64,000 bases of DNA from Peptococcaceae bacterium UBA4068 (lineage in GTDB: Bacteria; Bacillota; Dehalobacteriia; UBA4068). The DNA lies in the NCBI GenBank assembly GCA_002382665.1, contig DFZA01000006.1:66950-130949 (forward strand), read 5' to 3'. The notes under the pieces were generated by a model. The model was given only the letters and a program-made list of their open reading frames with translations, was not told the origin of the DNA and ran no database searches. Positions 8,683-56,486 of the stretch are shown piece after piece. The first letter of the stretch is position 1; every line of letters starts with the position of its first letter. A program made the translations under genes and the position numbers.

Positions 8683-8902
8683 TAATAACAACGGCAGGGA
8701 TACAATCCCTGCCGTCAGCGTGTCGATAAACTTCGCGATACGTCGTTACGGCCATCACCGGCTTCTCGACGTATCTTTATTAATACGCCTGCGTCGCCGG
8801 TTCCGGACGCGCCTGGTCTCGCTCGTTTCTCGGCTCGCTGATAATCTTTTTGACAGTCTCACGGTAGACATACAATTTCTGCCGTTATTTCTGTTATTCA
8901 AT

Positions 8903-9877
8903 TTAAATATATCCAAGTAATCGCAAACTATAGGTAAATATAAACAGTGTTATTACCGCCAAAGCGGTAGAGAAAAATATTATCTGGGAAGCCAGTTTAT
9001 AATCAGCCCCCATCTGATAGGCCATCGGAAAACTGCTGACAGCCGCTGGGGCACCAAAAAACACCATTAATACCACCAAATCGGTGCCGCGAATACCTAA
9101 GTAAATACTTAACATGACCATAATCAGAGGGAATACCAGTATTTTAATAGCCGTAGCAATTAAACTTAATTTGATTGTGTTATTGTCTTTTTCAAAGTCC
9201 ATGCTGGCGCCAAGCGTAATCAGTGCCAGCGGAATCGCCATATCGGACATAAAACTAATCGGTTTCATAACAATAACAGGTAGTTTTAATCCCACTAAAG
9301 ATGAAATAACACCCAACACCGTAGCAATGATTAACGGATTGGTAATGATCTTTCTAATATAATGACGGTTATGGGCGTCTCCGGTACTTTCCGATAGCAC
9401 CAAAACTGCGATTATATTATAAAAAGGAATAGCAAAAGCCATCATCATCGAGGCCTCCGCCATTCCGGCGGAACCGCTGATATTATTAATCAACGCGAAG
9501 CCTAACAATACAAAATTACCGCGAAAACTGCCTTGAATAAAAGCGCTGCGGCGAGCCGGATCACCGATTAGCTTATCAGAGCTGATACGCAAAATAATAA
9601 CCAGAATCAGCGTAGAAACAATTGCTAATATGATCGGCAAAGGCGTTATTTTGCTAACCGGGTTAGCAAGCAAGTCTTGATAAAGCATGCAGGGCAAAGC
9701 CACGGTAAATACAAACTTGGTACCGCCGGCAATAAAATTGGTATTAAGAAATTTATATCGTTTTAATAGATAACCAAGCAGCGCAATAATAAATATTGGC
9801 AAAACTGCATTGATACTAAAAATAAGCTGCGTCATAATACCACCAATAAATATTAAACTTCGTGATAATTCTACCAC
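8903..9877 (-). CDS. AEC (auxin efflux carrier/malate permease) family transporter
   Basis: 324 aa, two repeated 5-TM halves, AEC-like pattern. Confidence 0.65.
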   Translation of the reverse strand: MVELSRSLIFIGGIMTQLIFSINAVLPIFIIALLGYLLKRYKFLNTNFIAGGTKFVFTVALPCMLYQDLLANPVSKITPLPIILAIVSTLILVIILRISSDKLIGDPARRSAFIQGSFRGNFVLLGFALINNISGSAGMAEASMMMAFAIPFYNIIAVLVLSESTGDAHNRHYIRKIITNPLIIATVLGVISSLVGLKLPVIVMKPISFMSDMAIPLALITLGASMDFEKDNNTIKLSLIATAIKILVFPLIMVMLSIYLGIRGTDLVVLMVFFGAPAAVSSFPMAYQMGADYKLASQIIFFSTALAVITLFIFTYSLRLLGYI

Positions 9878-9975
9878 GCCTGCTCTGATATCGCAACATC
9901 AACAAAAAACCTTAATTGCATATATCCACAGTATTTGATAAAATAGTATAGTAATTAAATTAGAGAGGAATGTCT

Positions 9976-11892
9976 ATGCAGCTTTGTATAGGACATAATT
10001 TAAGCAAAAGCTTCGGAGTCCGCGAACTTTTCAGCGGGCTTGATTTTGTGATTGACGAAAATAAACACATCGGCTTAATCGGCGCCAATGGTTGCGGTAA
10101 AACTACGCTGATGCGGATGATTGCCGGCATCAACTCTCCGGACAGCGGCGAGATCGTTTTTTCCCGCGAAGCTGTTTTAGGCTATATGGAGCAATATATT
10201 CTAAAAAGTGATGGCACGACACTTTATCAACAGGTAGCAACAGTATTTGACCATCTGGCAGCGATCGAGCGGCAACTTGCTACCAATAATGCGCTGCTGG
10301 AAAGCCAAGCCGACGCCGATTTAATATTACGCCAGCAACAATTACGCGACGATTTTGCAGCGGCAGGCGGTTATACTTACAAGGCGCGTTTACGCTCCGC
10401 ACTGTTAGGGCTGGGTTTCAGTGAAAGCGACTTTGAGCGCCCGATCTCATCCTTCAGCGGCGGAGAGTGTTCCAAAGCGTTGCTAGCCAAAGCATTGCTG
10501 GCCGAAGCTAATCTGCTATTGCTCGACGAACCGACTAACCATTTGGATATCAAGGCTATCGAATGGCTGGAAAATTACCTTACCGGTTATCGCGGCGCCT
10601 TTATCGTCGTCTCTCATGACCGCTATTTCCTTGATAAGGTTACCGATCAAACCTGGGAAATGGCATCACAGCAACTTTATAAATTTGACGGGAATTATAG
10701 CGCTTATGTAATACATAAACAGGCGCAGCAAGAAGCGGCTCTTGGACATTACGCCAATGTCAGCGGCGAAATAAAGCGTATTGAAAGCATCATTGAACAG
10801 CAACGCCGCTTTAATCAGGCCCGTAATTATAAGACGATCGCTTCCAAAGAAAAACAAATCACCAAATTGGCCGGAGAGCTGCCGATAGTAGAACAACAAC
10901 TTTCAAGTATCAAATTCCGCTTCGCTACCGCCCTGCCCGGCGGCAACGAAGTGTTACGCATCAAAGATCTGTCGGTTAACATCGACGGTAAACCATTATT
11001 TGCCAATCTTGACCTGGAGATCAACAAAGGCGAGCGGGTATTTCTGCTTGGACCCAACGGTTGCGGCAAAACAACACTGCTTAAACTAATCACCGGCGCA
11101 GAAGATATTGATAGCATCGGTATAATACGATTGGGAACCAATATCAATATCGGCTATTATGATCAGGTACAAAGCGAGCTAAAACACAATCACAGCCTGC
11201 TGGAGGAATTAACGGAATGTTTGCCAAAAGAAACGCAGACGCGCCTGCGTACGGCACTAGGATGTTTTCTTTTTTGCGGCGATGATGTAGGAAAGCTAGT
11301 CGGTGATTTAAGCGGTGGCGAACGCTCGCGCATGGAATTATTGAAACTGATGCTCTCTCCTGCCAATCTATTACTGCTCGACGAACCGAGCAACCATCTC
11401 GATATTAACAGCCGTGAAGCGGTTGAACAAGCTTTACTGAGCTACAACGGTACTATGTTAATCGTATCCCATGACCGCTATTTGATCAATAAACTGGCAA
11501 CCAAAATATATTATCTAACGCCCCGGGGCACAATGTGTTCATTAGGAAATTATGATGATTTTTTAATTAAACATCAAAATGAAATCGATCAGCAGACGAC
11601 AATAAACAAGCCGGAGAAGACTAGCAAAAGCAGTGTCAATGATTACAGGCAACACAAAGAAGAGGAAAAAAACCGCCGCCGGGCGCAAAAAAAGGTTGAA
11701 CAAACAGAAGCGCAAATAGCAGCTTTGGAAGCTGATCTGACCGCGATTGAGGCGATGATACAACAACCGCAAATTGCCGCTGATTATCAGCAATTGAGCC
11801 AACTTTGCGACAAGCGCGAACATATGCAAAAACAACTAGTCGAATTATATGACCAGTGGGAGCAGGTAACACAAGAAATAGATCAGTTATAA
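9976..11892 (+). CDS. ABC-F family ATPase (two ABC domains, no TM domain, C-terminal coiled coil)
   Basis: Two Walker A sites (GANGCGKTT, GPNGCGKTT) and two signatures (FSGGE, LSGGERSR). Charged coiled-coil tail. Start moved to the ATG at 9976 to give the GAGAGGA SD a proper spacing. Confidence 0.8.
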   Translation: MQLCIGHNLSKSFGVRELFSGLDFVIDENKHIGLIGANGCGKTTLMRMIAGINSPDSGEIVFSREAVLGYMEQYILKSDGTTLYQQVATVFDHLAAIERQLATNNALLESQADADLILRQQQLRDDFAAAGGYTYKARLRSALLGLGFSESDFERPISSFSGGECSKALLAKALLAEANLLLLDEPTNHLDIKAIEWLENYLTGYRGAFIVVSHDRYFLDKVTDQTWEMASQQLYKFDGNYSAYVIHKQAQQEAALGHYANVSGEIKRIESIIEQQRRFNQARNYKTIASKEKQITKLAGELPIVEQQLSSIKFRFATALPGGNEVLRIKDLSVNIDGKPLFANLDLEINKGERVFLLGPNGCGKTTLLKLITGAEDIDSIGIIRLGTNINIGYYDQVQSELKHNHSLLEELTECLPKETQTRLRTALGCFLFCGDDVGKLVGDLSGGERSRMELLKLMLSPANLLLLDEPSNHLDINSREAVEQALLSYNGTMLIVSHDRYLINKLATKIYYLTPRGTMCSLGNYDDFLIKHQNEIDQQTTINKPEKTSKSSVNDYRQHKEEEKNRRRAQKKVEQTEAQIAALEADLTAIEAMIQQPQIAADYQQLSQLCDKREHMQKQLVELYDQWEQVTQEIDQL

Positions 11893-11972: not shown

Positions 11973-12428
11973 TTATTTAAAAATTCCGTACCAAAATAAG
12001 CTATATATAGCTATTTGCAGTGGTTTGCAAGTTAATATTATTAATAAGAATCTTTTTAAACTGATACTGCTGAGGCCGGTGATCATACACAAAATGTCAT
12101 CCGGAAAACCGGGTGACAAGATCGCTATGGTAAAAAACAGTGGGTATCTTTTACTGTTTTCTACTTTACCTATATATTTGTCGTATAATCGTCTTGTTAA
12201 TGACTTAACAAACGGAGCGCCATAATAACGCCCCAGCAAGAAGTTAATGCTGCTGCCGATTGTCACACCGATATAATTATAAACAAAACCCCATACCGGG
12301 CCAAATAATAAAACTCCCGCCAAGCAAGTAAAGCCGCTGGGGAAAAATGGCATTACCACTAAAGCAATCTGCGTAGCTAAAAATAACACCGGGGCTAATA
12401 CGCCGGCTTCATTAACATACACAGCCAT
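11973..12428 (-). CDS. DedA/TVP38/TMEM64 (SNARE-associated) family membrane protein, possibly N-terminally truncated
   Basis: Conserved GRYYG and PGFPDD-like motifs of the DedA family. Only 151 aa. Confidence 0.55.
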   Translation of the reverse strand: MAVYVNEAGVLAPVLFLATQIALVVMPFFPSGFTCLAGVLLFGPVWGFVYNYIGVTIGSSINFLLGRYYGAPFVKSLTRRLYDKYIGKVENSKRYPLFFTIAILSPGFPDDILCMITGLSSISLKRFLLIILTCKPLQIAIYSLFWYGIFK

Positions 12429-15397: not shown

Positions 15398-16333
15398 TTA
15401 TCCACTGTTTGTGACAATAAACATTGGATAAAATAACTGATCTCGCAGCGGTTGATAATTATTGGTTAAATTAATAAAACCCTGCAAACTAAAAGGAGGC
15501 AAATAAATATGCTGCACCGTCGGTAATATAGTTGTAGTCAGGCTATAACCGCTGTCAATTTTAGACCTGGATATTATCCGCCCGGCAAACCGGTAAAATC
15601 CGCCGCTGCTGTGATAAACGGCATATGAAACACCATTTGTGGAATGATAGACGATTACCTCTCGATCCGCCAGCAATTGCAGGTACTCTTCCAAACAAAG
15701 GCCGTTTTTATAAATTAATTCGGCATGAGGCTGACCAACATAACGGATATGCCACGGCTCGTAAACATAGCCTGTAACCGCGGTTTTATCCTCAGGATAG
15801 CGAATAATAAAACCATATTTATAACAATTGGTGGTAATCCAATTCCCTGCCGCCGTGGTAGCAAACCGATTGTCCAAGGCATTATTAAGACTGGCGGTTG
15901 ACAAATCAACAGCCAATCCTGTCTGATGTTCGCTGAAGCCCGGTGGCGCGACAATGCCAGAAGCCAGCTTATGCGCCTCTGCATAATCATAACCCAGCAA
16001 ACGATAATATTTAATTTTGTTTTGATACAGGTGGGTTTGCCACGTATAATCGCGGTAGCCGTTAGTCGCGCGAATATCGCTGATACCCGCGGCCTGCATT
16101 GCTTTAACCATTTCACCTAACGCCTGGGCTGCGTCAACACGCAGGCGAACATCTGATGTTTTAGTCCGGATATAGGAATTCAGATAGACTAATTGCTGTG
16201 GAGTGTAGCCGCTGTTTAAAGCATGCTGACGGTTTACTAACATCAAACTATCAGTCGAGAGCGCCTCTGCTGTTGGCGAAAACAACATAATCAATATTAA
16301 TAACGAAATTATGATCATTAGCTTATCGCGCAT
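15398..16333 (-). CDS. VanY/M15-family D-alanyl-D-alanine carboxypeptidase with N-terminal signal/anchor
   Basis: SEHQTGLAVDL (SxHxxGxAxD) and EPWHIRY zinc-ligand motifs of VanY-type peptidases. Confidence 0.7.
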   Translation of the reverse strand: MRDKLMIIISLLILIMLFSPTAEALSTDSLMLVNRQHALNSGYTPQQLVYLNSYIRTKTSDVRLRVDAAQALGEMVKAMQAAGISDIRATNGYRDYTWQTHLYQNKIKYYRLLGYDYAEAHKLASGIVAPPGFSEHQTGLAVDLSTASLNNALDNRFATTAAGNWITTNCYKYGFIIRYPEDKTAVTGYVYEPWHIRYVGQPHAELIYKNGLCLEEYLQLLADREVIVYHSTNGVSYAVYHSSGGFYRFAGRIISRSKIDSGYSLTTTILPTVQHIYLPPFSLQGFINLTNNYQPLRDQLFYPMFIVTNSG

Positions 16334-16655: not shown

Positions 16656-18248
16656 ATGAATCTAATTAGAAATTTTTCTGCTGAATATGAAGACTATCTG
16701 CACGACGAATCAAGAATAATCGGTACTGCCGATACCATAGCATTCCCTAAAACAGAAGACGAAATCAGAGAAATTGTCAGATATTGTGTCAATAATAATA
16801 TACCTATGACAGTGCAAGGCGGACGTACCGGCCTGACTGCCGCCGCCGTTCCTGAAGGCGGCCAGATTATCAATTTCAGCCGTATGAATAAAATAACTGC
16901 GGCCCGTTATGATGCTGAACAAAATGCCTTCTTTCTCAGCGTACAACCGGGGCTGCTTTTAGCGGAACTGCGAAAAGTTATTGATAATAAATCCTTCGAT
17001 ATCAGCAAATGGGATGAGCAATCCCGTGATGCGCTTACTTACTTTAGCGCCGGCAAGTGGACGTTTTCTCCCGACCCGACCGAAACTTCGGCAGCTATCG
17101 GCGGAATAATCGGCTGTAACGCTTCTGGCGCGCGCAGCTTTTATTTCGGGGCAGTTCGCCCTTATGTGGAAGCGCTGCGTATCGTACTGGCCGACGGTGA
17201 CCTTTTGGAGATCCGCCGTGGCGAAAATTTTGCAAATGGTCGTAGTTTTAGCCTCACTACAGTCAGCGGACACACCATCAGCGGTCAATTACCTACCTAC
17301 CAAATGCCTGTTACCAAAAATGCCGCCGGCTACTATATTGCCGACGATATGGATTTGATTGATTTATTTATCGGCAGCGAAGGTACACTGGGTATTATCA
17401 GTGCAGCCGAATTACGGTTAATACCGACCGCGCCGGTTGTCTGGGGTATCAGCTCATTCTTCAATGACGAAAAAACCGCGTTGCGTTTCGTACGGGCGCT
17501 GCGTCAGGAACAGCTCCCAGGTATCGCTGATATATTTAAACAACGTCCGGTCGCTATCGAATTTTTTAACCATAGTGCTCTGGCGCTTTTAAAAGAACAA
17601 AAACAGCATAATCCGGCTTTCTCACAAATCCAGGAGATTAAAGAAGGCAGCAATTGCGCCGTCTTTACCGAATTTCACAGCGAAAATGAAGAATATATGT
17701 GGCAATTACTGCGTGACCTGCTGCGCCTGCGCGAGCAACTGGGTGAAAAAGAGGACAACACCTGGGTAGCCACCAACAGCCGCGATATGGAAAAATTATT
17801 ATTTTTCCGTCATGCGGTACCGGAATGCGTTAATATGCTGATCGATCTGCGCCGCCAAAGCGACGCCAGCATCCGTAAACTTGGTACTGACATGGCAGTA
17901 CCCGATGATTATTTAGATGCAGCAATGGAAATGTATAACAGCGATCTACTTGCCAATCAACTTGACTTTGCAATTTGGGGCCATATCGGCAATAATCATC
18001 TGCATGTCAATATACTGCCGCGCAACGCTGAGGATTTTCGCCGCGGCAAAGAACTTTACGGTCAATGGGCCGGTAAAGTTACCTTCTGGGGCGGCACCGT
18101 TTCCGCTGAACACGGCATCGGTAAATTTAAAAAAGCTTTTTTATTGATTATGTACGGCGAAAAAAATATCGCGCAAATGCGCGATCTGAAAAAGCTATTT
18201 GATCCTTTGATGTTAATCAACCGCGGTAATATTTTTTCCGAACAATAG
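16656..18248 (+). CDS. FAD-linked oxidase (GlcD/D-lactate dehydrogenase-like)
   Basis: FAD-binding PCMH-type N-terminal domain (MTVQGGRTGLTAAAVP) plus C-terminal FAD-oxidase domain. Start set to the ATG with an AAGGAG SD. Confidence 0.7.
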   Translation: MNLIRNFSAEYEDYLHDESRIIGTADTIAFPKTEDEIREIVRYCVNNNIPMTVQGGRTGLTAAAVPEGGQIINFSRMNKITAARYDAEQNAFFLSVQPGLLLAELRKVIDNKSFDISKWDEQSRDALTYFSAGKWTFSPDPTETSAAIGGIIGCNASGARSFYFGAVRPYVEALRIVLADGDLLEIRRGENFANGRSFSLTTVSGHTISGQLPTYQMPVTKNAAGYYIADDMDLIDLFIGSEGTLGIISAAELRLIPTAPVVWGISSFFNDEKTALRFVRALRQEQLPGIADIFKQRPVAIEFFNHSALALLKEQKQHNPAFSQIQEIKEGSNCAVFTEFHSENEEYMWQLLRDLLRLREQLGEKEDNTWVATNSRDMEKLLFFRHAVPECVNMLIDLRRQSDASIRKLGTDMAVPDDYLDAAMEMYNSDLLANQLDFAIWGHIGNNHLHVNILPRNAEDFRRGKELYGQWAGKVTFWGGTVSAEHGIGKFKKAFLLIMYGEKNIAQMRDLKKLFDPLMLINRGNIFSEQ

Positions 18249-41399: not shown

Positions 41400-41492
41400 G
41401 GAGAAGTCGCCTAGTTTGGTCGAGGGCGCGCGACTGGAAATCGCGTAAACCCCAAAAGGGTTTCGAGAGTTCGAATCTCTCCTTCTCCGCCA
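41400..41492 (+). tRNA. tRNA-Ser (anticodon GGA), class II with long variable arm
   Basis: Acceptor GGAGAAG/CTTCTCC+G+CCA, anticodon loop CTGGAAA, 93 nt. Followed by a hairpin and T-run terminator at 41501-41540. Confidence 0.85.
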
Positions 41493-41603
41493 CACAACAA
41501 AACGCCTGTATCAGATAGGTACGGGCGTTTATTTTTTTGCTGTTTTGGAGATAAATTCCCAATATTAAAGCTTAAGGGGTTAGTATATTTGTCACTATAG
41601 AAA
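41433..41603 (+). repeat. Direct repeat copy A (171 bp): 3' 60 nt of tRNA-Ser, its terminator and about 65 bp of flank
   Basis: Aligns at about 88% identity with 42827-42997. Confidence 0.85.
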
Positions 41604-41822
41604 GCGAGCGTGTGCCAAAAATCGATAAATAAGACCAGCTATAGAACCAATACCATAATAATAGGCATCAATTTCTTCAAGAGGAAATCCTGTAGAGTGT
41701 CTATTGAAAAAACTGAAGGTAACTTAAAACACAGCCGATCATTATGGATATAGAATAACCCTGTTTAGATTTGAGTGTCTAAGCAGGGTTAATTTTTATA
41801 GCTTTTTAATTTTATGAGGAGT

Positions 41823-42527
41823 TCAAATTCGCTTAAACAATATGCCTGATAAAATGCCCAATATAATCAAGACGATAAAATCTATTGAAATTACTGCGAT
41901 TTCGAAAATATACTCGCGTTGGATGCCATAAACAAAAGTAATAACTCCTAAAGCGGCTATTGATAAAATAAATCCTACGACACAAGTCCACCGGAGAGTA
42001 TTTGAAAGCCAACCTTTTTGGGTAAATACAGGTGCAAAAAACAATATAGAAAACGATAATAACAAATAACCGGCTTCTTCCAAAGCAATAAAGATTCCAT
42101 GAGGATTATATTGTGTTAAAAGTGCCAAAGCCTCAGTTTCGCCGTTAAGTAGGCTTTGTTGTATCACAGTGACCTGTAAAAAGTAATCAACAAAAAGGAT
42201 ACCGGAAGCTAAAACAGCAAACATCACGCCTATGTGGCTGTATAGCTTTTTTTCAGAACAGGCGTATCTGTGAACACAAACTCCGTAGATAATAAACACC
42301 AAAACTAAAGCCATCGCTGGATACATCCAAAAATAATCCCTGGGGAAACGTGAGATTATGTCTGTATAGGGGTATGTAGTAATTGTACCTGTAGCAAAGG
42401 GGCCTGATATAGGTGGGGTACATATTGCTATTGCAAAAGTAAGAACTGTTAAAACTGACAACACTATGGAGCTGGTCATACCAATTGTCTTCAATTTAAA
42501 ATCAGCTTTGTCTTTACCATTTATCAT
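41823..42527 (-). CDS. Polytopic membrane protein of unknown function (bracketed by the tRNA-Ser direct repeats)
   Basis: 234 aa, about 7 TM helices. Confidence 0.45.
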   Translation of the reverse strand: MINGKDKADFKLKTIGMTSSIVLSVLTVLTFAIAICTPPISGPFATGTITTYPYTDIISRFPRDYFWMYPAMALVLVFIIYGVCVHRYACSEKKLYSHIGVMFAVLASGILFVDYFLQVTVIQQSLLNGETEALALLTQYNPHGIFIALEEAGYLLLSFSILFFAPVFTQKGWLSNTLRWTCVVGFILSIAALGVITFVYGIQREYIFEIAVISIDFIVLIILGILSGILFKRI

Positions 42528-42826
42528 AGAAGTCCACTCATCTCCAATCTTCTCTTACCTCATATTATACTATACAATTAAGTATACACTATCACGATTT
42601 AAATTCAAATATATTATAAACGAACAGTATAAATGAACGATCAAATCTTTTATAATGTGTATGTTATTAGGTGAGAAATGCTTAGAACATTTTTAACATT
42701 TTTTTAACGTAACCAATAATTTTAACGCATTTTAACCAATTACTAATAAAGGGCAGGCCAGGTAAAAGCTAAGCTAGATAAGCATATTTAATGGATAATC
42801 AGACTATTAAAAGTGATAAAAACATT

Positions 42827-42997
42827 ACTGGAAATCGCGTAAACCCCAAAAGGGTTTCGAGAGTTCGAATCTCTCCTTCTCCGCCACACAACAAAACACC
42901 TGTATCTGATAGGTACGGGTGTTTATTTTTTGCTCTAATTGAGATAAATTCTTAATATTTAAGTTTTAGGGGTTAGTATATTTAGCCACTATAGAAA
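42827..42997 (+). repeat. Direct repeat copy B: partial tRNA-Ser (from the anticodon loop to CCA), terminator and flank
   Basis: actggaaatcgcg...ccgcca plus aaaacacctgtatctgataggtacgggtgttt terminator plus gagataaatt...ggggttagtatattt...ctatagaaa, homologous to 41433-41603. Confidence 0.85.
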
Positions 42998-45005: not shown

Positions 45006-45044
45006 GAGCGGCTCGAGGTTTATAATTCCTCTATGCTTCTATAT

Positions 45045-45077
45045 AAAAAGCTTGCAGGTTAATTCTGCAAGCTTTTT
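45045..45077. terminator. Bidirectional terminator (aaaaagcttgcag / ctgcaagcttttt) marking the left edge of the AT-rich island
   Basis: 12-bp perfect stem, A-run and T-run on opposite sides. Confidence 0.65.
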
Positions 45078-45115: not shown

Positions 45116-46900
45116 TTATTTGTCAGGCTTTAATTTATATATTGGCCAACTTCTAAATATATCTTGATCTGAAGGATCAAGCTTTTCAAAGTACATATGA
45201 TAATCAAAAACATTATCTAATAAAATACTTATTGAACATAATGCAAGAACATCTTCATCTGAGTTAAGTTTTGCTTTTTTGTCATTTAATTGTATTTTTT
45301 CTTCCTTAGATAATGGAGTTTGTCTTTTTTTAATTTGCATTGTATTTATTAGATTAATAGTACTATCTATAGAATAATTGTCTAAATAATTTTGAATTTT
45401 TTCAGCTAATATTAAGAGTTTCCCACGTGTAGTATCTTTATCATATGCTATTAATATCTGAATAAGAAATTCAGTTAATAAGCTAAATGTTTGTTCATTT
45501 AATTCCATAGAAATAATTGAATCATAAATAACGTCACATTTAATGTTCGAAAATCTTAAAATATCCTCAGATTTCAGCTGTATATATGGACTAACTATAG
45601 CTTCTTCTCCATTTGTAAATTTCGCAATTACCATTAAATCATCATTTTTTTCAAAATAATTAAGTATTTCAAAAGCACCGTTATCTTTGGGTATTACTAA
45701 TAGAGCAATACTAAGAGGCCCTATCATTATACAAGTTATACCTACTTGCAACTGTATCCCATTAGGAATTATTATCTTATTAAGGGAATTAATTAACCAT
45801 GTCAAATTATTAGAATTTGGCTTTATGAGATCATCAAAGTTTTTATCATAATTAATCCCTAAATTATTAAGTATATTTTCTGCCATAGTATAATTTGATA
45901 GTAATTCTTCTAATTCTTCTAAACCTTTATTGTCACGAAAATCTATATTAGTAACATTAGAATATAAAGGAGTTTCATCTATTTCTATTATCTTTTTACT
46001 AAAAACAGCAATTAAAAACCTAATATCTTTTATTCTTTCTTTCAAACTTCCTATTATCTTATAATCTACCTTTATTTCCTTTCCATTAATTTTAAGTAAC
46101 TCAATTGCTTGTCCAACTTGTATTTTTTCATTATCTTTATTTTTGGCAACTCTGTAACTTGAATAATACTCAATTCCTTCAACATTAACATTCCTAGAAA
46201 TTTCTTTTACTATTTCATTAATTTGTATCGTTCTATTAAAAGGAACAAATGGACTTTCTGGATTTAGTTTCCCATATAAATAATTTTCGTCATCAAAAAC
46301 ATTAATAATTGAGCCCATTTCATAAGACGTTACCCCTATTTCAATTTTATTGACTTTTTCAATATCTTTGAAGTCAATATAAATATCATTTTTTTGCATT
46401 TCCATATTTTTATATGTATCTGCACATATATATGTAAATGATGAAGATTTATTTTCTGGAACATATTTCAAGCAAATGTTTATTTGCTTTTGATTTTCGT
46501 TTAGTTTTCCTATTAGTTTTTTTATATCTACAGGTAAAAGTCTTTTATAGTATAATCTACATAAACTAATACTTTTCTCATCAATTTCTACAACAAAAAA
46601 AATAACACCAATTTTTAATGTATATTTTTTTAAATCTGTAACATTCAACGGATATGATCTAGTATTATCACTAAATTTTTTAACAAGCTTCCCTTTTACT
46701 TGAACCGGAATGCAACCAGTCAAATGATCTTTTTTCTGCTCGCCATTGTTGAATATTTCAATTTCGCCATCCCAAATAATGTCTCTTTCACTCTTTTTTA
46801 TATTGGCGTGTAATAACGAACATGAATTAATAGCAGTACAAACTGTTTGAACTGCTGCTTCTTCTATTTTAGTACTCGGTATTGACATTATAATTACCAC
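45116..46900 (-). CDS. Large AT-rich orphan protein (594 aa) with DUF4365-like N-terminal domain
   Basis: Long ORF with strongly AT-biased codons. N-terminal D-x-GEIEI...VQVKGK pattern, reminiscent of DUF4365, a PD-(D/E)xK-like domain family. No Walker or TM motifs. Confidence 0.5.
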   Translation of the reverse strand: MVIIMSIPSTKIEEAAVQTVCTAINSCSLLHANIKKSERDIIWDGEIEIFNNGEQKKDHLTGCIPVQVKGKLVKKFSDNTRSYPLNVTDLKKYTLKIGVIFFVVEIDEKSISLCRLYYKRLLPVDIKKLIGKLNENQKQINICLKYVPENKSSSFTYICADTYKNMEMQKNDIYIDFKDIEKVNKIEIGVTSYEMGSIINVFDDENYLYGKLNPESPFVPFNRTIQINEIVKEISRNVNVEGIEYYSSYRVAKNKDNEKIQVGQAIELLKINGKEIKVDYKIIGSLKERIKDIRFLIAVFSKKIIEIDETPLYSNVTNIDFRDNKGLEELEELLSNYTMAENILNNLGINYDKNFDDLIKPNSNNLTWLINSLNKIIIPNGIQLQVGITCIMIGPLSIALLVIPKDNGAFEILNYFEKNDDLMVIAKFTNGEEAIVSPYIQLKSEDILRFSNIKCDVIYDSIISMELNEQTFSLLTEFLIQILIAYDKDTTRGKLLILAEKIQNYLDNYSIDSTINLINTMQIKKRQTPLSKEEKIQLNDKKAKLNSDEDVLALCSISILLDNVFDYHMYFEKLDPSDQDIFRSWPIYKLKPDK

Positions 46901-47695: not shown

Positions 47696-47893
47696 ATGAG
47701 TAACAACCGCATTCCCATATCAAAAAAGGAACATGCAAAAGGAGAAGACGGGTATAAAACTTTCTCCATTCGTATAAAAGAAGAAACAGTCGCTGCGCTG
47801 GACGCTATAGCAAATAAAAGCAACCGCTCCAGAAACGAACTAATCAATATATTTTTGGACTATGGAGTTGAACACTGCGAAATCGTAGAGTAA
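47696..47893 (+). CDS. Ribbon-helix-helix (CopG/Arc/MetJ-like) DNA-binding protein
   Basis: KTFSIRIKEETVAALDAIANKSNRSRNELI, the β-strand-helix-helix pattern of RHH regulators and antitoxins. Confidence 0.6.
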   Translation: MSNNRIPISKKEHAKGEDGYKTFSIRIKEETVAALDAIANKSNRSRNELINIFLDYGVEHCEIVE

Positions 47894-47918
47894 TAACCCC
47901 ATTTAGTCGAGGTGCGCC
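47851..47918 (+). repeat. 68-bp direct repeat, copy 1 (3' end of RHH gene plus RBS region)
   Basis: About 94% identical to 48701-48768. Both copies end exactly at an ATG start codon. Confidence 0.9.
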
Positions 47919-48701
47919 ATGAAAAACAAAGTTATTTTATTTGTTATTGTTCTTTTATTAGTAATCTGTACATCGTCATATTTTTTTATTAGTAATAACA
48001 ATCAGACTAATAAAAAAACAGAGTCTACATCTACTGCCGAAATTTCCACTGCTACCACAATACCAAGTGTATCTAAAGAAACAGAAACAAAATACGAATG
48101 GGTTATTAAACCAAAACTTGATTATTCATTAATCGTTTTTGATCCATTTGCCCAAAACTATCAAGGAATAATAAATTATAAAGATGGAGAAAGTCATTAT
48201 GTAATCAGCAGCGAAACGGGAGAAGAAACTGGTGAATCTATTTTAGGCGATTCTATTGGCATTATGCCTTTCTGTGATCCACAACAAAATATTTTAGGTA
48301 CGCGTACTTATACTACTTGGGGTCAACAATTGTATGGTGAAGGAGATATTACTCAATTAGATTCTATTGCAGATATTGAAAGTGTTATTAAAACACACCA
48401 AAAGATAGCCACTCTAATTCCGTTACAAAAGGCCGATTTTTCTTCAGCAACTTCTTTCTCTAATAAATATGCTTTAGCAAACACTAATGATATTATCACA
48501 GATTTTATCTATGATGACGTTGACGGTTATTATAATACATCCACTTTTGCTGTTTGTAAAAACAACAAATGGGGATTCATCAATGATAAAGGCGAGCAAA
48601 TAATTGATTTTGTTTTTGATGGTGCAGTGAGTATTGAAACAGGAAAAGCATTCGTTAAGCAAAATGACAAGTGGGGAATTATTAAGATAACTATTGAATA
48701 A
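47919..48701 (+). CDS. WG-repeat (KWG motif) lipoprotein
   Basis: Signal peptide plus Cys. Repeated ...NKWGFINDKGEQ.../...NDKWGII... WG-containing repeats. Confidence 0.55.
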   Translation: MKNKVILFVIVLLLVICTSSYFFISNNNQTNKKTESTSTAEISTATTIPSVSKETETKYEWVIKPKLDYSLIVFDPFAQNYQGIINYKDGESHYVISSETGEETGESILGDSIGIMPFCDPQQNILGTRTYTTWGQQLYGEGDITQLDSIADIESVIKTHQKIATLIPLQKADFSSATSFSNKYALANTNDIITDFIYDDVDGYYNTSTFAVCKNNKWGFINDKGEQIIDFVFDGAVSIETGKAFVKQNDKWGIIKITIE

Positions 48702-48768
48702 TTTTTGGACTATGGAGTTGAACACTGCGAAATCGTAGAGTAATAACCCCATTTAATCGAGGTATACC
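48701..48768 (+). repeat. 68-bp direct repeat, copy 2 (precedes nim-like gene)
   Basis: See copy 1. Confidence 0.9.
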
Positions 48769-49257
48769 ATGAGGAGAAAAGACAGAGAAGTAACCAACCT
48801 TGACGAGATAAGAGACATCATTGAAAAATGTAAAGTCTGCCACCTTGCTATGGTGGATAACGGTATGCCCTATGTTATACCGCTTAATTTTGGTTATATA
48901 ATCGCAGATAATTTGCTGACTCTCTTTTTCCACAGCGCAAAAGAAGGGCGCAAAATCAATATATTAAAAGCTAACAATCAGGTTTGCTTTGAAATGACCT
49001 GCGAAGGTAAATCGCTTAATATAGAAAACCCCTGCAATTCAGGTTATTACTTCGAAAGCGTGCATGGATTCGGTCAGGTTGAATTCATTGAAGATGTCGA
49101 TGAAAAATGCCACGCGCTCACGCTTCTGGCAAAACATCAGTTAAATCAGGATTTCGTCTTCACAGAAAATCAGGCAAACAGCGTATGTGTGTTCAAGGTA
49201 GTATCCCAAGACTTTACCGGCAAAAAAAAGCCCGCGCCGGAGCATGATACCCAATAG
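48769..49257 (+). CDS. Pyridoxamine-5'-phosphate-oxidase-like, Nim (5-nitroimidazole reductase)-family protein
   Basis: N-terminal split-barrel pattern (CHLAMVDNGMPYVIPLNFGY...FHSAKEGRKI) as in NimA-type proteins, 162 aa. Confidence 0.65.
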   Translation: MRRKDREVTNLDEIRDIIEKCKVCHLAMVDNGMPYVIPLNFGYIIADNLLTLFFHSAKEGRKINILKANNQVCFEMTCEGKSLNIENPCNSGYYFESVHGFGQVEFIEDVDEKCHALTLLAKHQLNQDFVFTENQANSVCVFKVVSQDFTGKKKPAPEHDTQ

Positions 49258-50110: not shown

Positions 50111-50145
50111 AAAAAGATGCCGGTTTTAATAACCGGCATCTTTTA
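50111..50145. terminator. Bidirectional terminator (aagatgccggtt / aaccggcatctt) between vat and GT gene
   Basis: 12-bp perfect stem with flanking A and T runs. Confidence 0.7.
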
Positions 50146-51237
50146 AACTTCGTTTTCATTGGACTCTGAATTAACACTTTTAAAATAAAATTTATTATAC
50201 AGTACAGCCGGATGGTTTGGTTTATACTCGGCTGCCTTGTTATTATGCTTAATAGCTTGTTCTATGTTACCGATCCTGTCGTAACAGAAACATAGCTGCA
50301 TGTTGGGAATGTAATCCCAAAAATCATGCAGAATAAATCCCCAGTTATCAACAGGCTTTTTCAACTGGGTAGCCAGATTATACCAAAATATAGCTTTATC
50401 AAAGTCAGCCTTTTCTAAATAGTAGCTTCCCAGTTGACAACAGATTTCCGCTCGAGGCGTATCATATTCGAAGCTTTGCAATAATATTTTCAGTTTGCTT
50501 TTATTATTATTTAGATAACCATAGCATATTGAAAGATAAAAACAGGAACTGATATTATCTTCTGCCCATCCTTTTTCAGTATCTAAAAACTTATTGAAAT
50601 ATATGATCGCGTCATCGTACTTTTGATTGTAATACAGCTCTTTCGCATAATAGCAAAGCCCCCTTACGCTCAATTCTTTTCCTTTTGACAATAACTTTTC
50701 ATAGATTGATATGTTTCTGCCGCTTGGTGTTTGATGTTCTTTTTTATGAGTTATACATATATCTGAGTTAATAATATATCCTCCGGTTTGTATATACTCA
50801 TGGATAGGTTCCAACCATTTGTAGTTATTTGCCCTCTTAACCAAACGTTCTCTGTAATATGATAAAGTAATATTGCCGTTTTCATCAAAACCGGCATTAT
50901 ATTTCATCATCACCATATCAACATTATCATTTAAATCTTGTTTTAGCTGCTTTAATTTGATTCTGTCTTCTTCCAGGATAACATCGTCCGCGTCCAACCA
51001 AAGAATATAATCCTTTGTCGCTTGGGAAAATGAGTAATTTCTCGCGGCTGAAAAATCGTCAATCCATTCGAAATCATATAGTTTATCAGTATATTCTTTA
51101 ACAATATTCTTTGTGTTATCTGTAGATCCGGTATCCACAATAATTATTTCATCAGCAATATCCTTAACACATTCCAGGCACCTTGATAAAACGTCTTCTT
51201 CATCCTTCACAATCATACAAAGACTAATTGTTATCAT
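50143..51237 (-). CDS. GT2 (GT-A fold) glycosyltransferase with C-terminal TPR-like helical domain
   Basis: IVKDEEDVL...IIIVDTGSTDNT...WLDADDV (DxD) N-terminal domain. C-terminal TPR-like repeats. Architecture shared with spore-coat/exosporium and SunS-type glycosyltransferases. Confidence 0.7.
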   Translation of the reverse strand: MITISLCMIVKDEEDVLSRCLECVKDIADEIIIVDTGSTDNTKNIVKEYTDKLYDFEWIDDFSAARNYSFSQATKDYILWLDADDVILEEDRIKLKQLKQDLNDNVDMVMMKYNAGFDENGNITLSYYRERLVKRANNYKWLEPIHEYIQTGGYIINSDICITHKKEHQTPSGRNISIYEKLLSKGKELSVRGLCYYAKELYYNQKYDDAIIYFNKFLDTEKGWAEDNISSCFYLSICYGYLNNNKSKLKILLQSFEYDTPRAEICCQLGSYYLEKADFDKAIFWYNLATQLKKPVDNWGFILHDFWDYIPNMQLCFCYDRIGNIEQAIKHNNKAAEYKPNHPAVLYNKFYFKSVNSESNENEV

Positions 51238-51356: not shown

Positions 51357-52064
51357 TTATGTAATACGTAGTAATATCGTAGCTGCCGCGCCATTCTCTA
51401 AGGCAGCGGAAGTGGTGCTACGGGTAACTTTTACAGATAACAAATCACATCGATTAACAGTAAAATTTGCACTTGTAAATGCACAACAAGTTGGCGGATT
51501 TGGCCCTGTTACCACTGCTTTAATGCCTGTTGCTACAGGAGTAACCCCACAATTTGTGCTTCGATATATCTCACCAGTGATGGTTTCGCCTGTATCTAAA
51601 GGTTCGTCTCGAATACTAAAGACTAAACCTGTAATGGTTGAGGTTTGCGGGACGACAACAGTATTGCGCGGAAAACTTGATGACGAAATACCTAGTCCCA
51701 TAAAATCATTATTGCCAATAGATGTATCCGAACCTAAATAAATAGTACTTGCTCCAGGTCCCGTTGCGCCCGTTGCCCCAGTAGCACCTGTAGCGCCCGT
51801 TGCTCCTGTTGCGCCGGTAGGTATGGTTATACAGATACACTCGCAGCATTCACAACATTTCGGACAGCGACAAGGTTCAGTTTCACAGCATGAGTGGTCT
51901 TTATGACAATGACGATTGTTATCTTCACGACAATGGCAATCTTCATCTTCACAACAGAAAAACTCTAAACAATGTTGACAAAAACATAATTTAATATTTC
52001 GGTGTTTTTTTTCTATTTGATGATCCTGAAAATAGTCAGTCTCACCAAAGGTCCTTTTAGGCAT
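51357..52064 (-). CDS. Collagen-like (GAT)n repeat protein with Cys/His-rich N-terminal domain and BclA-C-terminal-like domain (putative spore-surface glycoprotein)
   Basis: 19 Cys in residues 27-79. (GAT)6-GPGAS triple-helix-type repeat encoded by a perfect 9-bp DNA repeat. About 125-aa β-rich C-terminal domain. Confidence 0.6.
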   Translation of the reverse strand: MPKRTFGETDYFQDHQIEKKHRNIKLCFCQHCLEFFCCEDEDCHCREDNNRHCHKDHSCCETEPCRCPKCCECCECICITIPTGATGATGATGATGATGATGPGASTIYLGSDTSIGNNDFMGLGISSSSFPRNTVVVPQTSTITGLVFSIRDEPLDTGETITGEIYRSTNCGVTPVATGIKAVVTGPNPPTCCAFTSANFTVNRCDLLSVKVTRSTTSAALENGAAATILLRIT

Positions 52065-52473
52065 TTTTCAATCCTCCCTACATAGTGTTATAGCCTGACT
52101 AACCTATAACATTATATGAGGAGTATAATAGCATAGTTCCATTACCAAGCCCTTAATTAATTGCTTATAAAGAGAGAGCCGATTATTGATTCAATAATTG
52201 GGGCGTGTTCTGTTTTATGTGTTTTAATGCCCTAGTGGTTATAATAAAAGCAAGGAATGCCCTCAAGGCTCGGATATTTCGGGTTTGAGGGCATTTTTAT
52301 TTAAGTAACTAATTGACTTTGTGTACTGTAGCGGAAGAAAATATAAAATTGCGCAGAATTACGATGTGTCCGTTCAATACTTTTTCCCACTGGTTTGTTG
52401 TCGAATTATCCCGCTTATTCTATCAGCAGCAAATGCGATTATACGGTATTCCGCACCTCCCCTTCTCAACTAT

Positions 52474-52507
52474 AAAACCCTCTGTATGGTATACAGAGGG
52501 TTTTATA
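52474..52507. terminator. Perfect palindromic terminator (aaaaccctctgtat-gg-atacagagggtttt) 3' of the GGDEF/HD-GYP gene
   Basis: 14-bp perfect stem, 2-nt loop, U-runs on both strands. Confidence 0.75.
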
Positions 52508-52559: not shown

Positions 52560-54245
52560 TCAAACAACTTTTGAATTTTTTCCTAAATTATTTGGATTTT
52601 GTAATAGATTTATAAAAGTATCCACTATTTTAGGATCAAATTGGGAGTTACTGCAGCGTTTAAGTTCTTCAATGGCTTCTCCAAATGATCTTCCTGTCTT
52701 ATATGGTCTATCCGTTGTCATGGCATCAAAACAATCTACTACAGTTAATATTCTGGCAAGATAAGGTATATCATCTCCCGAAAGACCATCGGGATAGCCG
52801 TTACCGTCATATCTCTCGTGATGATGTTTAATAAGGGGTATAACATCACTAATAGATTCTACAGGCCCGATTATTTCAGCACCTTTTACCGGATGCTGTT
52901 TTAGTATTTCCCATTCCTCCGACTCCAGAGTAATATCTTTATTAAGTATTGTCTTAGGAATATCAATTTTGCCAATATCGTGCAGATATGCGGCATATAT
53001 AAGCTTTTTCTTTTCGTCCTCAGCCAAATTTAACTCTTCGGCCATCATTTGACAATTCATAACTACTCTTTCCGTATGAGCGTATGTATATCTGTCTTTC
53101 ACATTAATAACCATTATCAAGGTTTTTATTGATGTGATCAATTTCGTATCTTCATCTTCAACATTGCTTTTTAGTTCGTCAAAAATAGATGTATAGGTTT
53201 CTACCCGATTTCTGTTAAAGATTTTGGCTCTATATAAAGCATCGTCGGCATTCTTTACCAACTGATCTGCAGATTTTACTCTTTCAGGAAATGACGAGAC
53301 CCCGATTGATATAGTTAGGTTACCATTGGGCTGCAGTTGCTGATTTTCAAAGTAGGTTTGTTCGATCTTTTGCCGGATTCGTTCTCCGATTTTTACCGCG
53401 TAATCTTCGCCCGTTTCCGGCAGTATGATAACAAACTCCTCCCCGCCATATCGCACAGCCACATCATCTTTTCTGGTTTGCTCTTTCAAAATATCGGCTA
53501 TAGTCTTTAATACTTGATCTCCTTTTTGGTGTCCGTTAAGATCATTATAATTCTTAAAATAATCAATATCTAAAAAAATCAAGGATAGGGGTTGCTTGTT
53601 TTCTACAGCCTGTTCAGTTTTTAATTTTAACATTTTACTGAAATATCTATGATTGTATAAACCGGTAAGATTATCAGTATTGATACCGTATTCCAGTTGC
53701 TCTATATATTGATCATTTACCTTAACAAAGTATCCCAGCGTCCAGGAAACCAAGAAAAATATCCCTATCAGGACCAAATCGTCTTCAAAATAAGGATTTA
53801 TACTTTGATGGGTATAAGTCAATATGTCCAAGGATACTATAACAACAGATGAAGCTAGAGATATCAGTAATCCATTCCTCATGCCCATCTGAATGGTAGA
53901 AGATATAATAACAAGCAAAAACAGAAATTTATATATACTTTCGGCCGCTCCGGAAATATAAATTACAAAAGTGAAAAGTAAAACAAAAAATAGATTTTCC
54001 CCCAGCAAGAACCATCTGTTTTTAACAAACTTTGCACTTTTATTTTCCCATAGATCCCAGAGGAAATAAGTGCAAAGCAGAACAATACACCCAACAGCCC
54101 CTGTAATTAATAGAGTGGTTTGGTAGGGATCATTTTCGGTGTTAATAATTTTATACTTATAAATAATAAAACCAGCAAAGAGTAAAAAACATAATTTTAT
54201 AATAGAAAGTATATTGTTTATCTCTTTTTTATTATCATTATCCAT
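52560..54245 (-). CDS. Membrane-anchored bifunctional c-di-GMP protein: N-terminal about 6-TM sensor-like domain, then GGDEF, then HD-GYP
   Basis: RYGGEEF (intact GGEEF). HD...HHERYDGNGYP (intact HD-GYP). About 175-aa N-terminal polytopic region. Confidence 0.8.
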   Translation of the reverse strand: MDNDNKKEINNILSIIKLCFLLFAGFIIYKYKIINTENDPYQTTLLITGAVGCIVLLCTYFLWDLWENKSAKFVKNRWFLLGENLFFVLLFTFVIYISGAAESIYKFLFLLVIISSTIQMGMRNGLLISLASSVVIVSLDILTYTHQSINPYFEDDLVLIGIFFLVSWTLGYFVKVNDQYIEQLEYGINTDNLTGLYNHRYFSKMLKLKTEQAVENKQPLSLIFLDIDYFKNYNDLNGHQKGDQVLKTIADILKEQTRKDDVAVRYGGEEFVIILPETGEDYAVKIGERIRQKIEQTYFENQQLQPNGNLTISIGVSSFPERVKSADQLVKNADDALYRAKIFNRNRVETYTSIFDELKSNVEDEDTKLITSIKTLIMVINVKDRYTYAHTERVVMNCQMMAEELNLAEDEKKKLIYAAYLHDIGKIDIPKTILNKDITLESEEWEILKQHPVKGAEIIGPVESISDVIPLIKHHHERYDGNGYPDGLSGDDIPYLARILTVVDCFDAMTTDRPYKTGRSFGEAIEELKRCSNSQFDPKIVDTFINLLQNPNNLGKNSKVV

Positions 54246-54326
54246 ATAGTTTATTAAACTCCGTAACCTGCCTACTATATAAGACCGGCCAATTTGGTCG
54301 GTCTTATATAGTATTTTTTTGTTATT

Positions 54327-54449
54327 TTAGTCTCTAAGGCATTTGGGTTCTTCCGGTTGATAGGCTGCAAACAGGCATGCTGAACTAGCAAATACGGAAG
54401 CGAGCAGTGTTGCTAAAACAGAAGTGAGTACCAACAGTTTGAATTTCAT
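54327..54449 (-). CDS. agrD: AgrD-like autoinducing-peptide precursor (40 aa; not in supplied ORF track)
   Basis: Hand translation gives MKFKLLVLTSVLATLLASVFASSACLFAAYQPEEPKCLRD. AGGAGG SD 8 nt upstream. Sits 26 nt downstream of agrB. Amphipathic leader, central Cys, and a charged tail with P-x-x-P-K, as in S. aureus AgrD ...CDFIMDEVEVPKEL. Confidence 0.6.
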   Translation of the reverse strand: MKFKLLVLTSVLATLLASVFASSACLFAAYQPEEPKCLRD

Positions 54450-54475
54450 TTGATTCACCTCCTTCTAACTTAAAT

Positions 54476-55108
54476 TTAATTATGGAGATCCATCATTGCG
54501 AATAAGCGACCTCCTGAGTGCGTTAAAGTTAGGGTCTGCCAGACCGTGCCAAAGAGTATACAAGCGGCATAGCGGATCAAATGTCCGTTATCTCCGGCAA
54601 AACTATGCAAAGATAGCAAGACGACTATGACCAATAGATATATTCCTAAAATTACCAAAGAGCCGTTCCGCAACCGTTTTCTTTTTCGTGCATTTGTGAT
54701 CGGTTTTTTAATACTGTCCACCGGGGCTTTGGTCAGTACTTCGTAAAACGCCCAGGCGAATGCTGCAATCCCCAAAATGATAACCCATATAACGTTTACG
54801 GGAATATGAGTGATAACAATAGCCGGAACAACAGAGATCACGGTACCTATAACAAGACACTTTCCGGGGGTAGCGGCATGAGCCCCGCCGGAATACTTCC
54901 GCAAAATAGCGATAGTAAAACAGATAACCAATGCTTGTCCAAGCACATGGAATAATAAACTAAAAAGGATAACCAGCAGTATAGATGCTAATATCTGGGA
55001 AAAACAAAAGATACCGTAGGCCATTACTGCTTTTTTATCCTCATCCATATGTAGCGAATAGGCAATATTGGCAGCAATCTTTTCCGCAATCGTCTCCAAA
55101 CTAAACAT
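54476..55108 (-). CDS. agrB: Accessory gene regulator protein B (AgrD-processing membrane peptidase)
   Basis: LRKYSGGAHAAT (AgrB R-x-x-SGG-HA catalytic region). Polytopic. K/R-rich cytoplasmic loop. 210 aa. Confidence 0.8.
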   Translation of the reverse strand: MFSLETIAEKIAANIAYSLHMDEDKKAVMAYGIFCFSQILASILLVILFSLLFHVLGQALVICFTIAILRKYSGGAHAATPGKCLVIGTVISVVPAIVITHIPVNVIWVIILGIAAFAWAFYEVLTKAPVDSIKKPITNARKRKRLRNGSLVILGIYLLVIVVLLSLHSFAGDNGHLIRYAACILFGTVWQTLTLTHSGGRLFAMMDLHN

Positions 55109-56130: not shown

Positions 56131-56142
56131 ACATTTTATTTT

Positions 56143-56174
56143 CCTATTTTCCTATTTTCCTATTTTCCTATTTT
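56143..56174. repeat. Tandem octamer (CCTATTTT) x4 with degenerate copies on both sides (56135-56190)
   Basis: Four perfect copies read directly. On the coding (-) strand they read AGGAAAAT x4-5, ending 12 nt before the ATG of the 55582..56130 gene. Confidence 0.9.
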
Positions 56175-56486
56175 CCATAATTTTCCATTTAAATACATTA
56201 TATCATGTTTATAGTTGAAATAAATACTTTCAGGGATAAAAATTGTAGAAATCTAATAAATTATAAATTTAAATTTCTAAATAAGTCTTAATATTACAAT
56301 TCATTCTTATCAGCAGTATGTTTAAGTTAATAATTAATTAGAGAATACGCCAACATTTGCCCTCAATGGCCGGAAATTCAGGCTTCGAGTGCTGCTTGAC
56401 ATTATGTGCCGTGATATGAGATACAAAATAAAATGATATAGACAAAATTATTAGTTTTAACTGCCGCATATATTGTTAGTGGGTAG

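Follow-up and report, generated by a model that had tools for sequence, protein, structure and literature searches.

The question raised by the tRNA-Ser(GGA) locus of Peptococcaceae bacterium UBA4068 (contig DFZA01000006.1) is why the 3′ part of this gene occurs a second time a short way downstream, with a single gene for a membrane protein lying between the intact gene and the repeated piece. All positions given here refer to the 64-kb stretch of the contig that was analysed as a whole (hereafter, the window) unless another locus is named. The two copies of the repeat together with the DNA between them delimit an islet of about 1.4 kb (1.39 kb), which we read as the scar of a site-specific integration in the anticodon loop: the downstream copy (copy B) would be the right attachment site (attR) of tRNA-Ser(GGA) and the newest of a tandem series of such remnants. 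We put the probability of this reading at about 0.7.

The intact gene occupies positions 41400–41492 of the plus strand, where ARAGORN makes its one tRNA-Ser(GGA) call and the Rfam tRNA model scores 54.6 bits, both methods agreeing with the first-pass annotation of the window; at a relaxed threshold Rfam returns nothing besides this gene between 40 and 54 kb, and its sequence is 100% identical to the tRNA of the related Peptococcaceae bacterium UBA5752 (locus L007, described below). A direct repeat of 171 bp starts 1 nt upstream of the anticodon loop CTGGAAA (41434–41440, plus strand), which is the presumed crossover region and the core of the putative left attachment site (attL). Copy A (41433–41603, plus strand) comprises the 3′ 60 nt of the tRNA, a spacer, a terminator (41500–41530) and an arm of about 70 nt, and copy B (42827–42997, plus strand), set at a distance of 1394 nt from copy A, holds the displaced tRNA-Ser 3′ fragment (42827–42886, the proposed attR), its own terminator (42894–42924) and arm. 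The first base of copy B, A at 42827, is part of the final base pair of the anticodon stem and is followed by the loop (CTGGAAA, 42828–42834), after which the fragment, in the same orientation as the intact tRNA, runs through CCA, a 7-nt spacer and a terminator hairpin that is itself intact (−18.2 kcal/mol, z −5.2), and the repeat continues for about 70 nt further. A second copy extending from the anticodon loop through CCA and the hairpin into the flank had been described in the first pass and holds good with its start 1 nt before the loop, while the identity proposed for it (about 88%) was close to the measured values: blastn gives 91.3% over 172 columns for the whole repeat, and the identity is 100% in the tRNA-derived part (60/60) and 85.0% in the flank (96/113 columns). 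A 34-nt stretch of the tRNA 3′ end is found exactly twice in the window, with 0 occurrences expected from 100 shuffles. Copy B was also considered as a cloverleaf tRNA in its own right and rejected, being left uncalled by ARAGORN and preceded by sequence unable to supply a 5′ half (fold z −1.0). The tRNA-Ser gene up to position 41432 is chromosomal, and the part from the anticodon loop onward was probably supplied by the incoming element.

For comparison the databases offered two related lineages of a thinly sampled clade, both possessing a different type of flank: UBA5752 (L007), whose HtpG and Apt are 86% and 94% identical to those of the window, and a closer metagenomic relative, here named species B (JGI contigs L062–L064), with 96% identity in HtpG and 91% in Hsp20. 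L007 retains the syntenic order HtpG–Hsp20–tRNA-Ser(GGA) with the identical tRNA, has the 3′ half in only one near-identical copy, lacks the membrane gene, and continues downstream of the tRNA with the flank, an array of TTTTAAC heptamers, a WG-repeat pseudogene and then apt–mtaP. In species B a single tRNA-Ser is followed by the flank, the TTTTAAC array, an open reading frame (ORF) of 330 aa and ypsA, again with no membrane gene; the 330-aa ORF has a sub-threshold match to the Pfam RES family (17.8 bits vs the curated cut-off of 23.2). The site downstream of the tRNA is thus differently occupied in each lineage. The same two-copy arrangement in all relatives had been named in the first pass as the sign of an old fixed duplication; what we find is that both L007 and species B lack the second copy as well as the membrane gene. 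HtpG relatives at 73% identity (L058–L060) showed no synteny and were uninformative. As a separate observation, the zf_Tbcl–apt–mtaP block of species B (L004, 805–2720), which is 94% identical to the window, lies away from tRNA-Ser, between a gene with a CarboxypepD_reg domain and an ion-channel gene.

The tRNA-derived and flanking parts of the repeat have diverged to a very different degree. Under neutral decay in situ at the rate of the flank, the probability of seeing 0 changes in the 60 tRNA nucleotides is P = 5.6e-5 (Fisher test of the tRNA part vs the flank, p = 7e-4), so that with 60/60 identical positions on one side and 96/113 on the other either the differences in the flank predate the event or the event was recent. 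Between the terminator stems one compensatory base pair has changed: copy A and species B have G:C there, copy B and L007 have A:T, and since both variants fold equally well, each was kept functional. The relatedness of the three lineages also switches at the tRNA. Upstream of it, in the Hsp20–tRNA spacer, the window is 91% identical to species B, and L007 is 76.5% identical to species B; in the flank downstream it is L007 and species B that are 87% identical, both copies of the window reaching 79–80% with species B, and copies A and B are each other's nearest relatives there (85%). The sequence 3′ of the anticodon loop therefore has a different history from that on the 5′ side, and this switch fits the replacement of old arms by element-borne ones. 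Taken together, the divergence pattern and the change of relatedness argue for imported DNA over local duplication, and the 111-nt non-tRNA part of the repeat is probably the arm sequence of two related successive insertions rather than duplicated chromosome.

Further fragments of the same tRNA half lie downstream. A profile of tRNA-Ser 3′ halves detected three of them in L007 (F1–F3), at 11245–11311 (directly after the mtaP stop), 12211–12275 and 16822–16875, with nhmmer E-values of 7.5e-20, 9.5e-20 and 1.2e-10, respectively. All three are on the plus strand, which is that of the tRNA, each is followed by its own hairpin, and none starts more than about 3 nt away from the 5′ edge of the anticodon loop. 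Species B keeps a shortened F1 right after mtaP (L004, 2641–2676; E = 1.7e-5) despite the relocation of the whole block. The positional homologue of these two fragments in the window is a weak F1 remnant at 45006–45042 (45006–45077 in the wider delimitation; plus strand), directly after the mtaP stop codon and followed by a hairpin; the F2 remnant (52421–52505, plus strand) preserves a variable arm in decayed form, ...CCCCTTCTC, and the terminator hairpin also found in F2 of L007, and a very weak F3 remnant (56370–56399, plus strand; CCGGAAAT...CTTCGAG) is syntenic with F3 of L007. The T-stem reads GAGGG/CCCTC in all old fragments and GAGAG/CTCTC in the present tRNA, as expected if later elements replaced the 3′ half. 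The series in L007 consists of the tRNA and three fragments; in the window it consists of the tRNA, copy B and three remnants, of which two are weak. The region of about 15 kb from the tRNA to about 56.4 kb thus has the look of a tandem array of fossil, integrase-less islets, the islet reported here being apparently its newest, tRNA-proximal unit.

In terms of mechanism, a circle carrying the core, the tRNA 3′ half, terminator A, arm A, the membrane gene and a TTTTAAC array would have recombined with the chromosomal tRNA gene at the anticodon loop. Integration of this kind would have displaced the resident 3′ half with terminator B and arm B downstream, leaving the element-borne 3′ half, with its terminator and an arm of about 70 nt, to complete the functional tRNA (copy A, attL). 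The recombinase may have acted in trans from elsewhere or have been lost by deletion from a larger element soon after, and earlier insertions at the same site would have left the progressively decayed tRNA-Ser 3′ fragments F1–F3. Inferred in this scheme are the recombinase, the circular intermediate, the assignment of one copy to the element and the timing. Both att cores being intact, excision by a cognate enzyme seems possible, and if it does occur, the islet would offer a convenient minimal substrate with which to identify the cognate integrase and to test if mini-islets move in trans. Serial insertions of this type would also preserve earlier tRNA 3′ halves as a dated fossil record.

The attachment-site scar of a decayed or minimal islet, which was the preferred suggestion of the first-pass annotation, is supported by the orientation of the fragment, its start in the anticodon loop, the state of the relatives, the further fragments and the pattern of divergence. 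There are, on the other side, several observations that weigh against it. Pfam domains of integrases, resolvases, recombinases or transposases are lacking among the called genes and examined ORFs of at least 200 aa in the window (Pfam annotations of the genes called between about 14.8 kb and a point past the end of the window, complemented by direct scans of the larger ORFs between 1 and 14.8 kb, which together represent nearly all window ORFs of at least 200 aa), so that the early statement that no integrase is present remains valid for the islet and its surroundings alike; no recombinase was found in the L007 array either. The proposed comparison with relatives shows the absence of the second copy and of the islet, but neither the exact empty site (5′ half joined to the copy-B flank), nor a larger integrase-bearing island, nor a circular junction was found in the two related lineages and the databases scanned. 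All same-species assemblies carry the islet, leaving no presence/absence polymorphism within the species. The repeat reaches 111 nt past the tRNA at 85% identity, which is longer than expected of an attP/attB identity block and demands the additional assumption that both copies are arms of related elements; if they do derive from two related successive elements, the extension of the repeat beyond the tRNA is explained. With respect to the core, the TTTTAAC array of the window stands on the side opposite to that in L007 and species B. Finally, F1 and F3 have left remnants in the window whose statistical support is weak when each is taken alone (nhmmer E = 5.7 for F1).

Given these objections, one has to ask if the repeat could have arisen without a site-specific recombinase. 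DNA of a related strain containing the tRNA 3′ half, the flank and the membrane gene could have entered by transformation or transduction, and have been inserted either as a circle, by one RecA-dependent crossover in the 171 nt of homology, or through homology-facilitated illegitimate recombination, the boundary being then inherited from the donor or coincidental. Such a route is favoured by the length of homology (171 nt including 72 identical ones), by the failure to find an integrase and by flank A being closest to flank B, which would make the donor a close relative. It leaves unexplained, however, why the block of homology ends exactly at the anticodon loop and why three more fragments in L007 start at the same point, and a donor already possessing the ready structure only shifts the site-specific event one step back; we therefore regard acquisition of this kind as unlikely. 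Purely local events, which the first pass had offered as an alternative in the form of a tandem duplication of the tRNA region, fare worse. Two tandem tRNA-Ser(GGA) genes or a duplicated tRNA–terminator–flank unit, with later loss of the 5′ part and insertion of the membrane gene between the copies, would account for the presence of non-tRNA flank within the repeat and for the closeness of copies A and B in the distal flank, and one more direct repeat bracketing a single gene does exist in the window (47838–47922 / 48689–48772). Yet the absence of changes in a non-functional tRNA fragment (0/60, P = 5.6e-5) is set against 17/113 changes in the flank, neither a second tRNA gene nor a membrane gene is seen in relatives, and two or three separate events would be required; random truncation at the edge of the loop, with a probability of about 5–10%, might be accepted for one fragment, but four share that point. 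Local duplication is accordingly disfavoured, and we hold it to be highly improbable.

Two further possibilities deserve consideration, of which one concerns the data and the other the biology. The sequence comes from a metagenome assembly, and the repeat interrupts the Logan unitigs, so that two strains differing in sequence downstream of the tRNA might have been chained artificially by way of the tRNA sequence that they share. In SRR636597, three Logan unitigs do end once they have entered the identical stretch by exactly 30 nt, which is what k = 31 leads one to expect, and unitigs of this k are unable to tell attB/attP from attL/attR because 72 nt are identical. The stretch is, however, shorter than the final k of 141 used in the ENA assembly, whose contig (L001, 100% identity) has the same layout; an independent JGI assembly (L002, 99.96% identity) gives the same order, and the junction between the islet and the partial tRNA (…aaaacatt/actggaaatcgcg) is real, being present in three assemblies. 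An artefact is thus scarcely credible. In the JGI assembly (L002, 3300000032; 10949–11684 and 15450–15932), mtaP and the PNPOx gene appear as two ORFs each, owing to frameshifts or sequencing errors. The other possibility is that a conserved module consisting of the tRNA-Ser 3′ half, terminator, arm of about 70 nt and paired TTTTAAC array serves as the attachment apparatus of miniature, recombinase-less single-gene cassettes, which would be swapped at this tRNA by an integrase encoded elsewhere. Cassette swapping would explain why three different genes—for the membrane protein, the WG-repeat protein and the 330-aa RES-like ORF—stand beside the same module, why the module is more conserved between L007 and species B than vertical divergence predicts, and why a non-functional fragment has not decayed, and, if true, it would represent a tRNA-anchored analogue of integron cassette exchange. 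At present we consider it quite improbable, and the scar of a site-specific integration remains the account that we prefer.

Intact related elements were also looked for outside these genomes. An exact scan of IMG/VR with the 60-nt att sequence gave 0 matches, the same scan of JGI metagenomes gave 1 match (L057) in an unrelated context and without an integrase, and blastn of the tRNA with its flank against INPHARED phages returned only generic phage tRNA-Ser genes. A gapped pattern of the tRNA-Ser(GGA) 3′ half retrieved one prophage fragment only from IMG/VR (L076, IMGVR_UViG_3300009716_000538, 8318–11595), which represents a prophage end with holin and amidase genes and two adjacent large serine recombinases (430 and 525 aa) located about 315 nt from a full, near-identical tRNA-Ser(GGA); since the contig stops 30 nt beyond the tRNA, the crossover point is unreadable. 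Thus tRNA-Ser(GGA) may be used as an attachment site in related hosts, which we take as a lead rather than as proof. The variable arm of the L076 tRNA-Ser resembles that of the old fragment F2 of L007.

The body of the islet (41604–42826) has a guanine–cytosine (GC) content of 33.6% vs 40.4% for the window and is absent from L007 and species B. Its present content amounts to a self-contained cassette of a promoter-like site, one membrane-protein gene, a hairpin and the TTTTAAC array. The single substantial ORF between the copies (41823–42527, minus strand) encodes a multi-pass helical membrane protein of 234 aa, so that the description of the locus as containing one such gene proved accurate, and no other cargo gene is present. 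The promoter-like site lies about 55 nt upstream of the gene (42581–42608, minus strand) and comes from a consensus scan only (9/12 matches). Just 3′ of the gene a hairpin at 41756–41791 (minus-strand fold −15.6 kcal/mol, z −6.4) is likely to be a terminator; the terminator scan finds a T run after the stem on the plus strand only, and with no such run on the minus strand a classic intrinsic terminator for the membrane gene is not shown. In base composition the gene, with a GC content at third codon positions (GC3) of 0.32, departs from the core genes upstream of the tRNA (ftsX to htpG, 0.40–0.55), among which hsp20 (0.37) is the exception.

The membrane protein has no match in Pfam or PADLOC and belongs to a large unnamed family with more than 1250 homologues, a few of which are labelled DUF998 or Frag1/DRAM/Sfk1 by their sources. 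Its best non-self homologue is only 64% identical, and the housekeeping neighbours of the islet have relatives at 86–96% identity. A model built by AlphaFold 2 from 43 homologues predicts an all-helical membrane bundle with a predicted local distance difference test (pLDDT) score of 87.7, and comparison with PDB both by sequence search and by fold search with Foldseek gave nothing significant. Relatives of the protein appear in 1 viral contig only, and the closest homologue with gene context resides among ordinary metabolic genes, so that the family is not a typical cargo of mobile elements.

The TTTTAAC array of the window consists of four heptamers arranged as two pairs (starts at 42691, 42702, 42720 and 42730; 42691–42736, plus strand) and lies 90 nt to the left of copy B. 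The same heptamer architecture follows the flank directly in L007 and species B, where it is almost invariant although different genes come after it, and no other such cluster occurs in 1.19 Mb of fetched loci. Plain alignment of the array regions of the window and L007 is not significant (z 2.3; 18/500 shuffles reach the score), and what the two have in common is the heptamer architecture only. Two gapped scans of IMG/VR for the TTTTAAC layout produced 24 matches, mostly simple tandem repeats in AT-rich bins of giant viruses, and six related phage contigs (L083, L084, L087, L089, L090 and L093) have paired TTTTAAC repeats that share the 10-nt phasing and stand between terL and a promoter-like sequence. 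The use of this motif as a diagnostic of recombination sites was considered and is ruled out by its matches in giant-virus tandem repeats and in unrelated phages. In the islet the array may represent arm-type sites or bent DNA.

Other parts of the region downstream of the tRNA are variable as well. Ahead of a conserved terminator and ypsA (SLOG family) there is a variable slot, which is occupied in the window by an ORF of 594 aa (45116–46900, minus strand; 25.5% GC, GC3 0.16) that has no Pfam or PADLOC match, and holds the unrelated 330-aa ORF in species B and the WG pseudogene in L007. The second direct repeat mentioned above (47838–47922 / 48689–48772; 85 nt, 92% identical) surrounds a WG_beta_rep gene (47919–48701, GC3 0.20), and each of its copies begins at the 3′ end of an RHH gene and stops at the start codon (ATG) of the gene that follows, which places the WG ORF exactly between duplicated stop-to-start junctions; the WG pseudogene of L007 adjoins tRNA-Ser instead. 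Just before the F2 remnant, the window has an insertion of 2.4 kb relative to L007 (50064–52514) with genes for a GT2/TPR glycosyltransferase (50143–51237) and for a Cys-rich protein of 235 aa with a collagen-like (GAT)7 run (51357–52064). The oldest unit of the array (52560–55108) is common to the window and L007 and encodes a GGDEF/HD-domain protein, an AgrB homologue with an adjacent 40-aa ORF—together an agr-like peptide signalling cassette—and DUF5317. A short tandem repeat (ATTTTCCT, about 5 copies, 56140–56175) lies in the spacer before a LysM/GH18 gene.

How, then, does the islet relate to known systems? In the Islander survey of genomic islands in tRNA genes (tDNAs), 2083 of the 3919 mapped tDNA islands are anticodon-centred and 3760 have a 3′ tDNA fragment (PMC4383910). 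The islet resembles these islands in having an intact tDNA at one end and a fragment of its 3′ part in the same orientation at the other, in the start of the fragment in the anticodon loop and in the restoration of the gene by the element (PMC4383910). It differs by its size of 1.39 kb with one cargo gene, by a repeat that runs 111 nt past the tRNA at 85% identity and by the lack of an integrase gene, which is required there. Compared with the Islander criteria, the intact tRNA boundary, the cognate fragment in the same orientation and the canonical crossover start are all observed, an integrase inside is not, and, of the relatives, L007 and species B are devoid of the islet and of the second copy but have other DNA and a different flank, with no exact empty site found and all same-species assemblies carrying the islet.

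Closer parallels are provided by elements that have lost their own recombination functions. Cis-mobilizable elements (CIMEs) and their tandem accretion were described for relatives of ICESt1 in Streptococcus thermophilus (PMC5704250). CIMEs likewise retain attL and attR, lack genes for integration and transfer and may form a tandem series at the end of one target gene (PMC5704250); in the islet attL and attR are retained at the sequence level, with the loop, the 3′ stem and the whole 3′ half identical in both copies, and integration and transfer genes are absent. Unlike the CIMEs of the ICESt1 type, the islet has as its target a tRNA anticodon loop, in an uncultured Peptococcaceae-like Firmicute, and comes with no known parent among integrative and conjugative elements (ICEs) or integrative and mobilizable elements (IMEs) and no adjacent functional partner, scans of viral and metagenome data with the att sequence having found no intact related element. 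In Dehalococcoides, 15 of the ssrA islands have no integration module, and it was proposed that they are either CIMEs or fixed remnants (PMC3146451). There too, many islands stand in tandem 3′ of a single gene for a small RNA, whose 3′ part recurs as a direct repeat at the end of each island, although the repeat there is of 20 bp and lies in the T-loop region of the transfer-messenger RNA (tmRNA), and many units contain the serine recombinase DsiB (PMC3146451), while in the tRNA-Ser array the repeats start in the anticodon loop and 0 of its four or five units keeps a recombinase. With integron cassettes the likeness is one of resemblance only, since single promoter-poor or self-contained genes between repeats and different genes in one slot among relatives are found in both; IntI and attC, which define such cassettes, are both missing from the window, the repeat here being a tRNA 3′ half with a terminator, and no array of similar cassettes is seen.

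Partial tRNA genes originating from integration into tDNA are pervasive (PMC9897764). The described examples of tRNA fragments (attR) mis-annotated as tRNAs flank elements of 9–23 kb, vs 1.4 kb in our case. By analogy with these systems the islet is best classified as a CIME-like decayed islet within a tandem accretion at a tDNA, that is, as a feature of a known kind. Such a reading accounts for the pseudo-tRNA fragment and matters mostly for annotation and genome history, marking the roughly 15 kb that follow tRNA-Ser(GGA), from 41.4 to 56.4 kb, as accessory DNA gained by accretion in a Peptococcaceae-like lineage that is uncultured. Among its counterparts the islet is notable mainly for its very small size (1.39 kb, the compared published islands ranging from about 9 kb upward) and for the clean series of fossil fragments with which it is associated.

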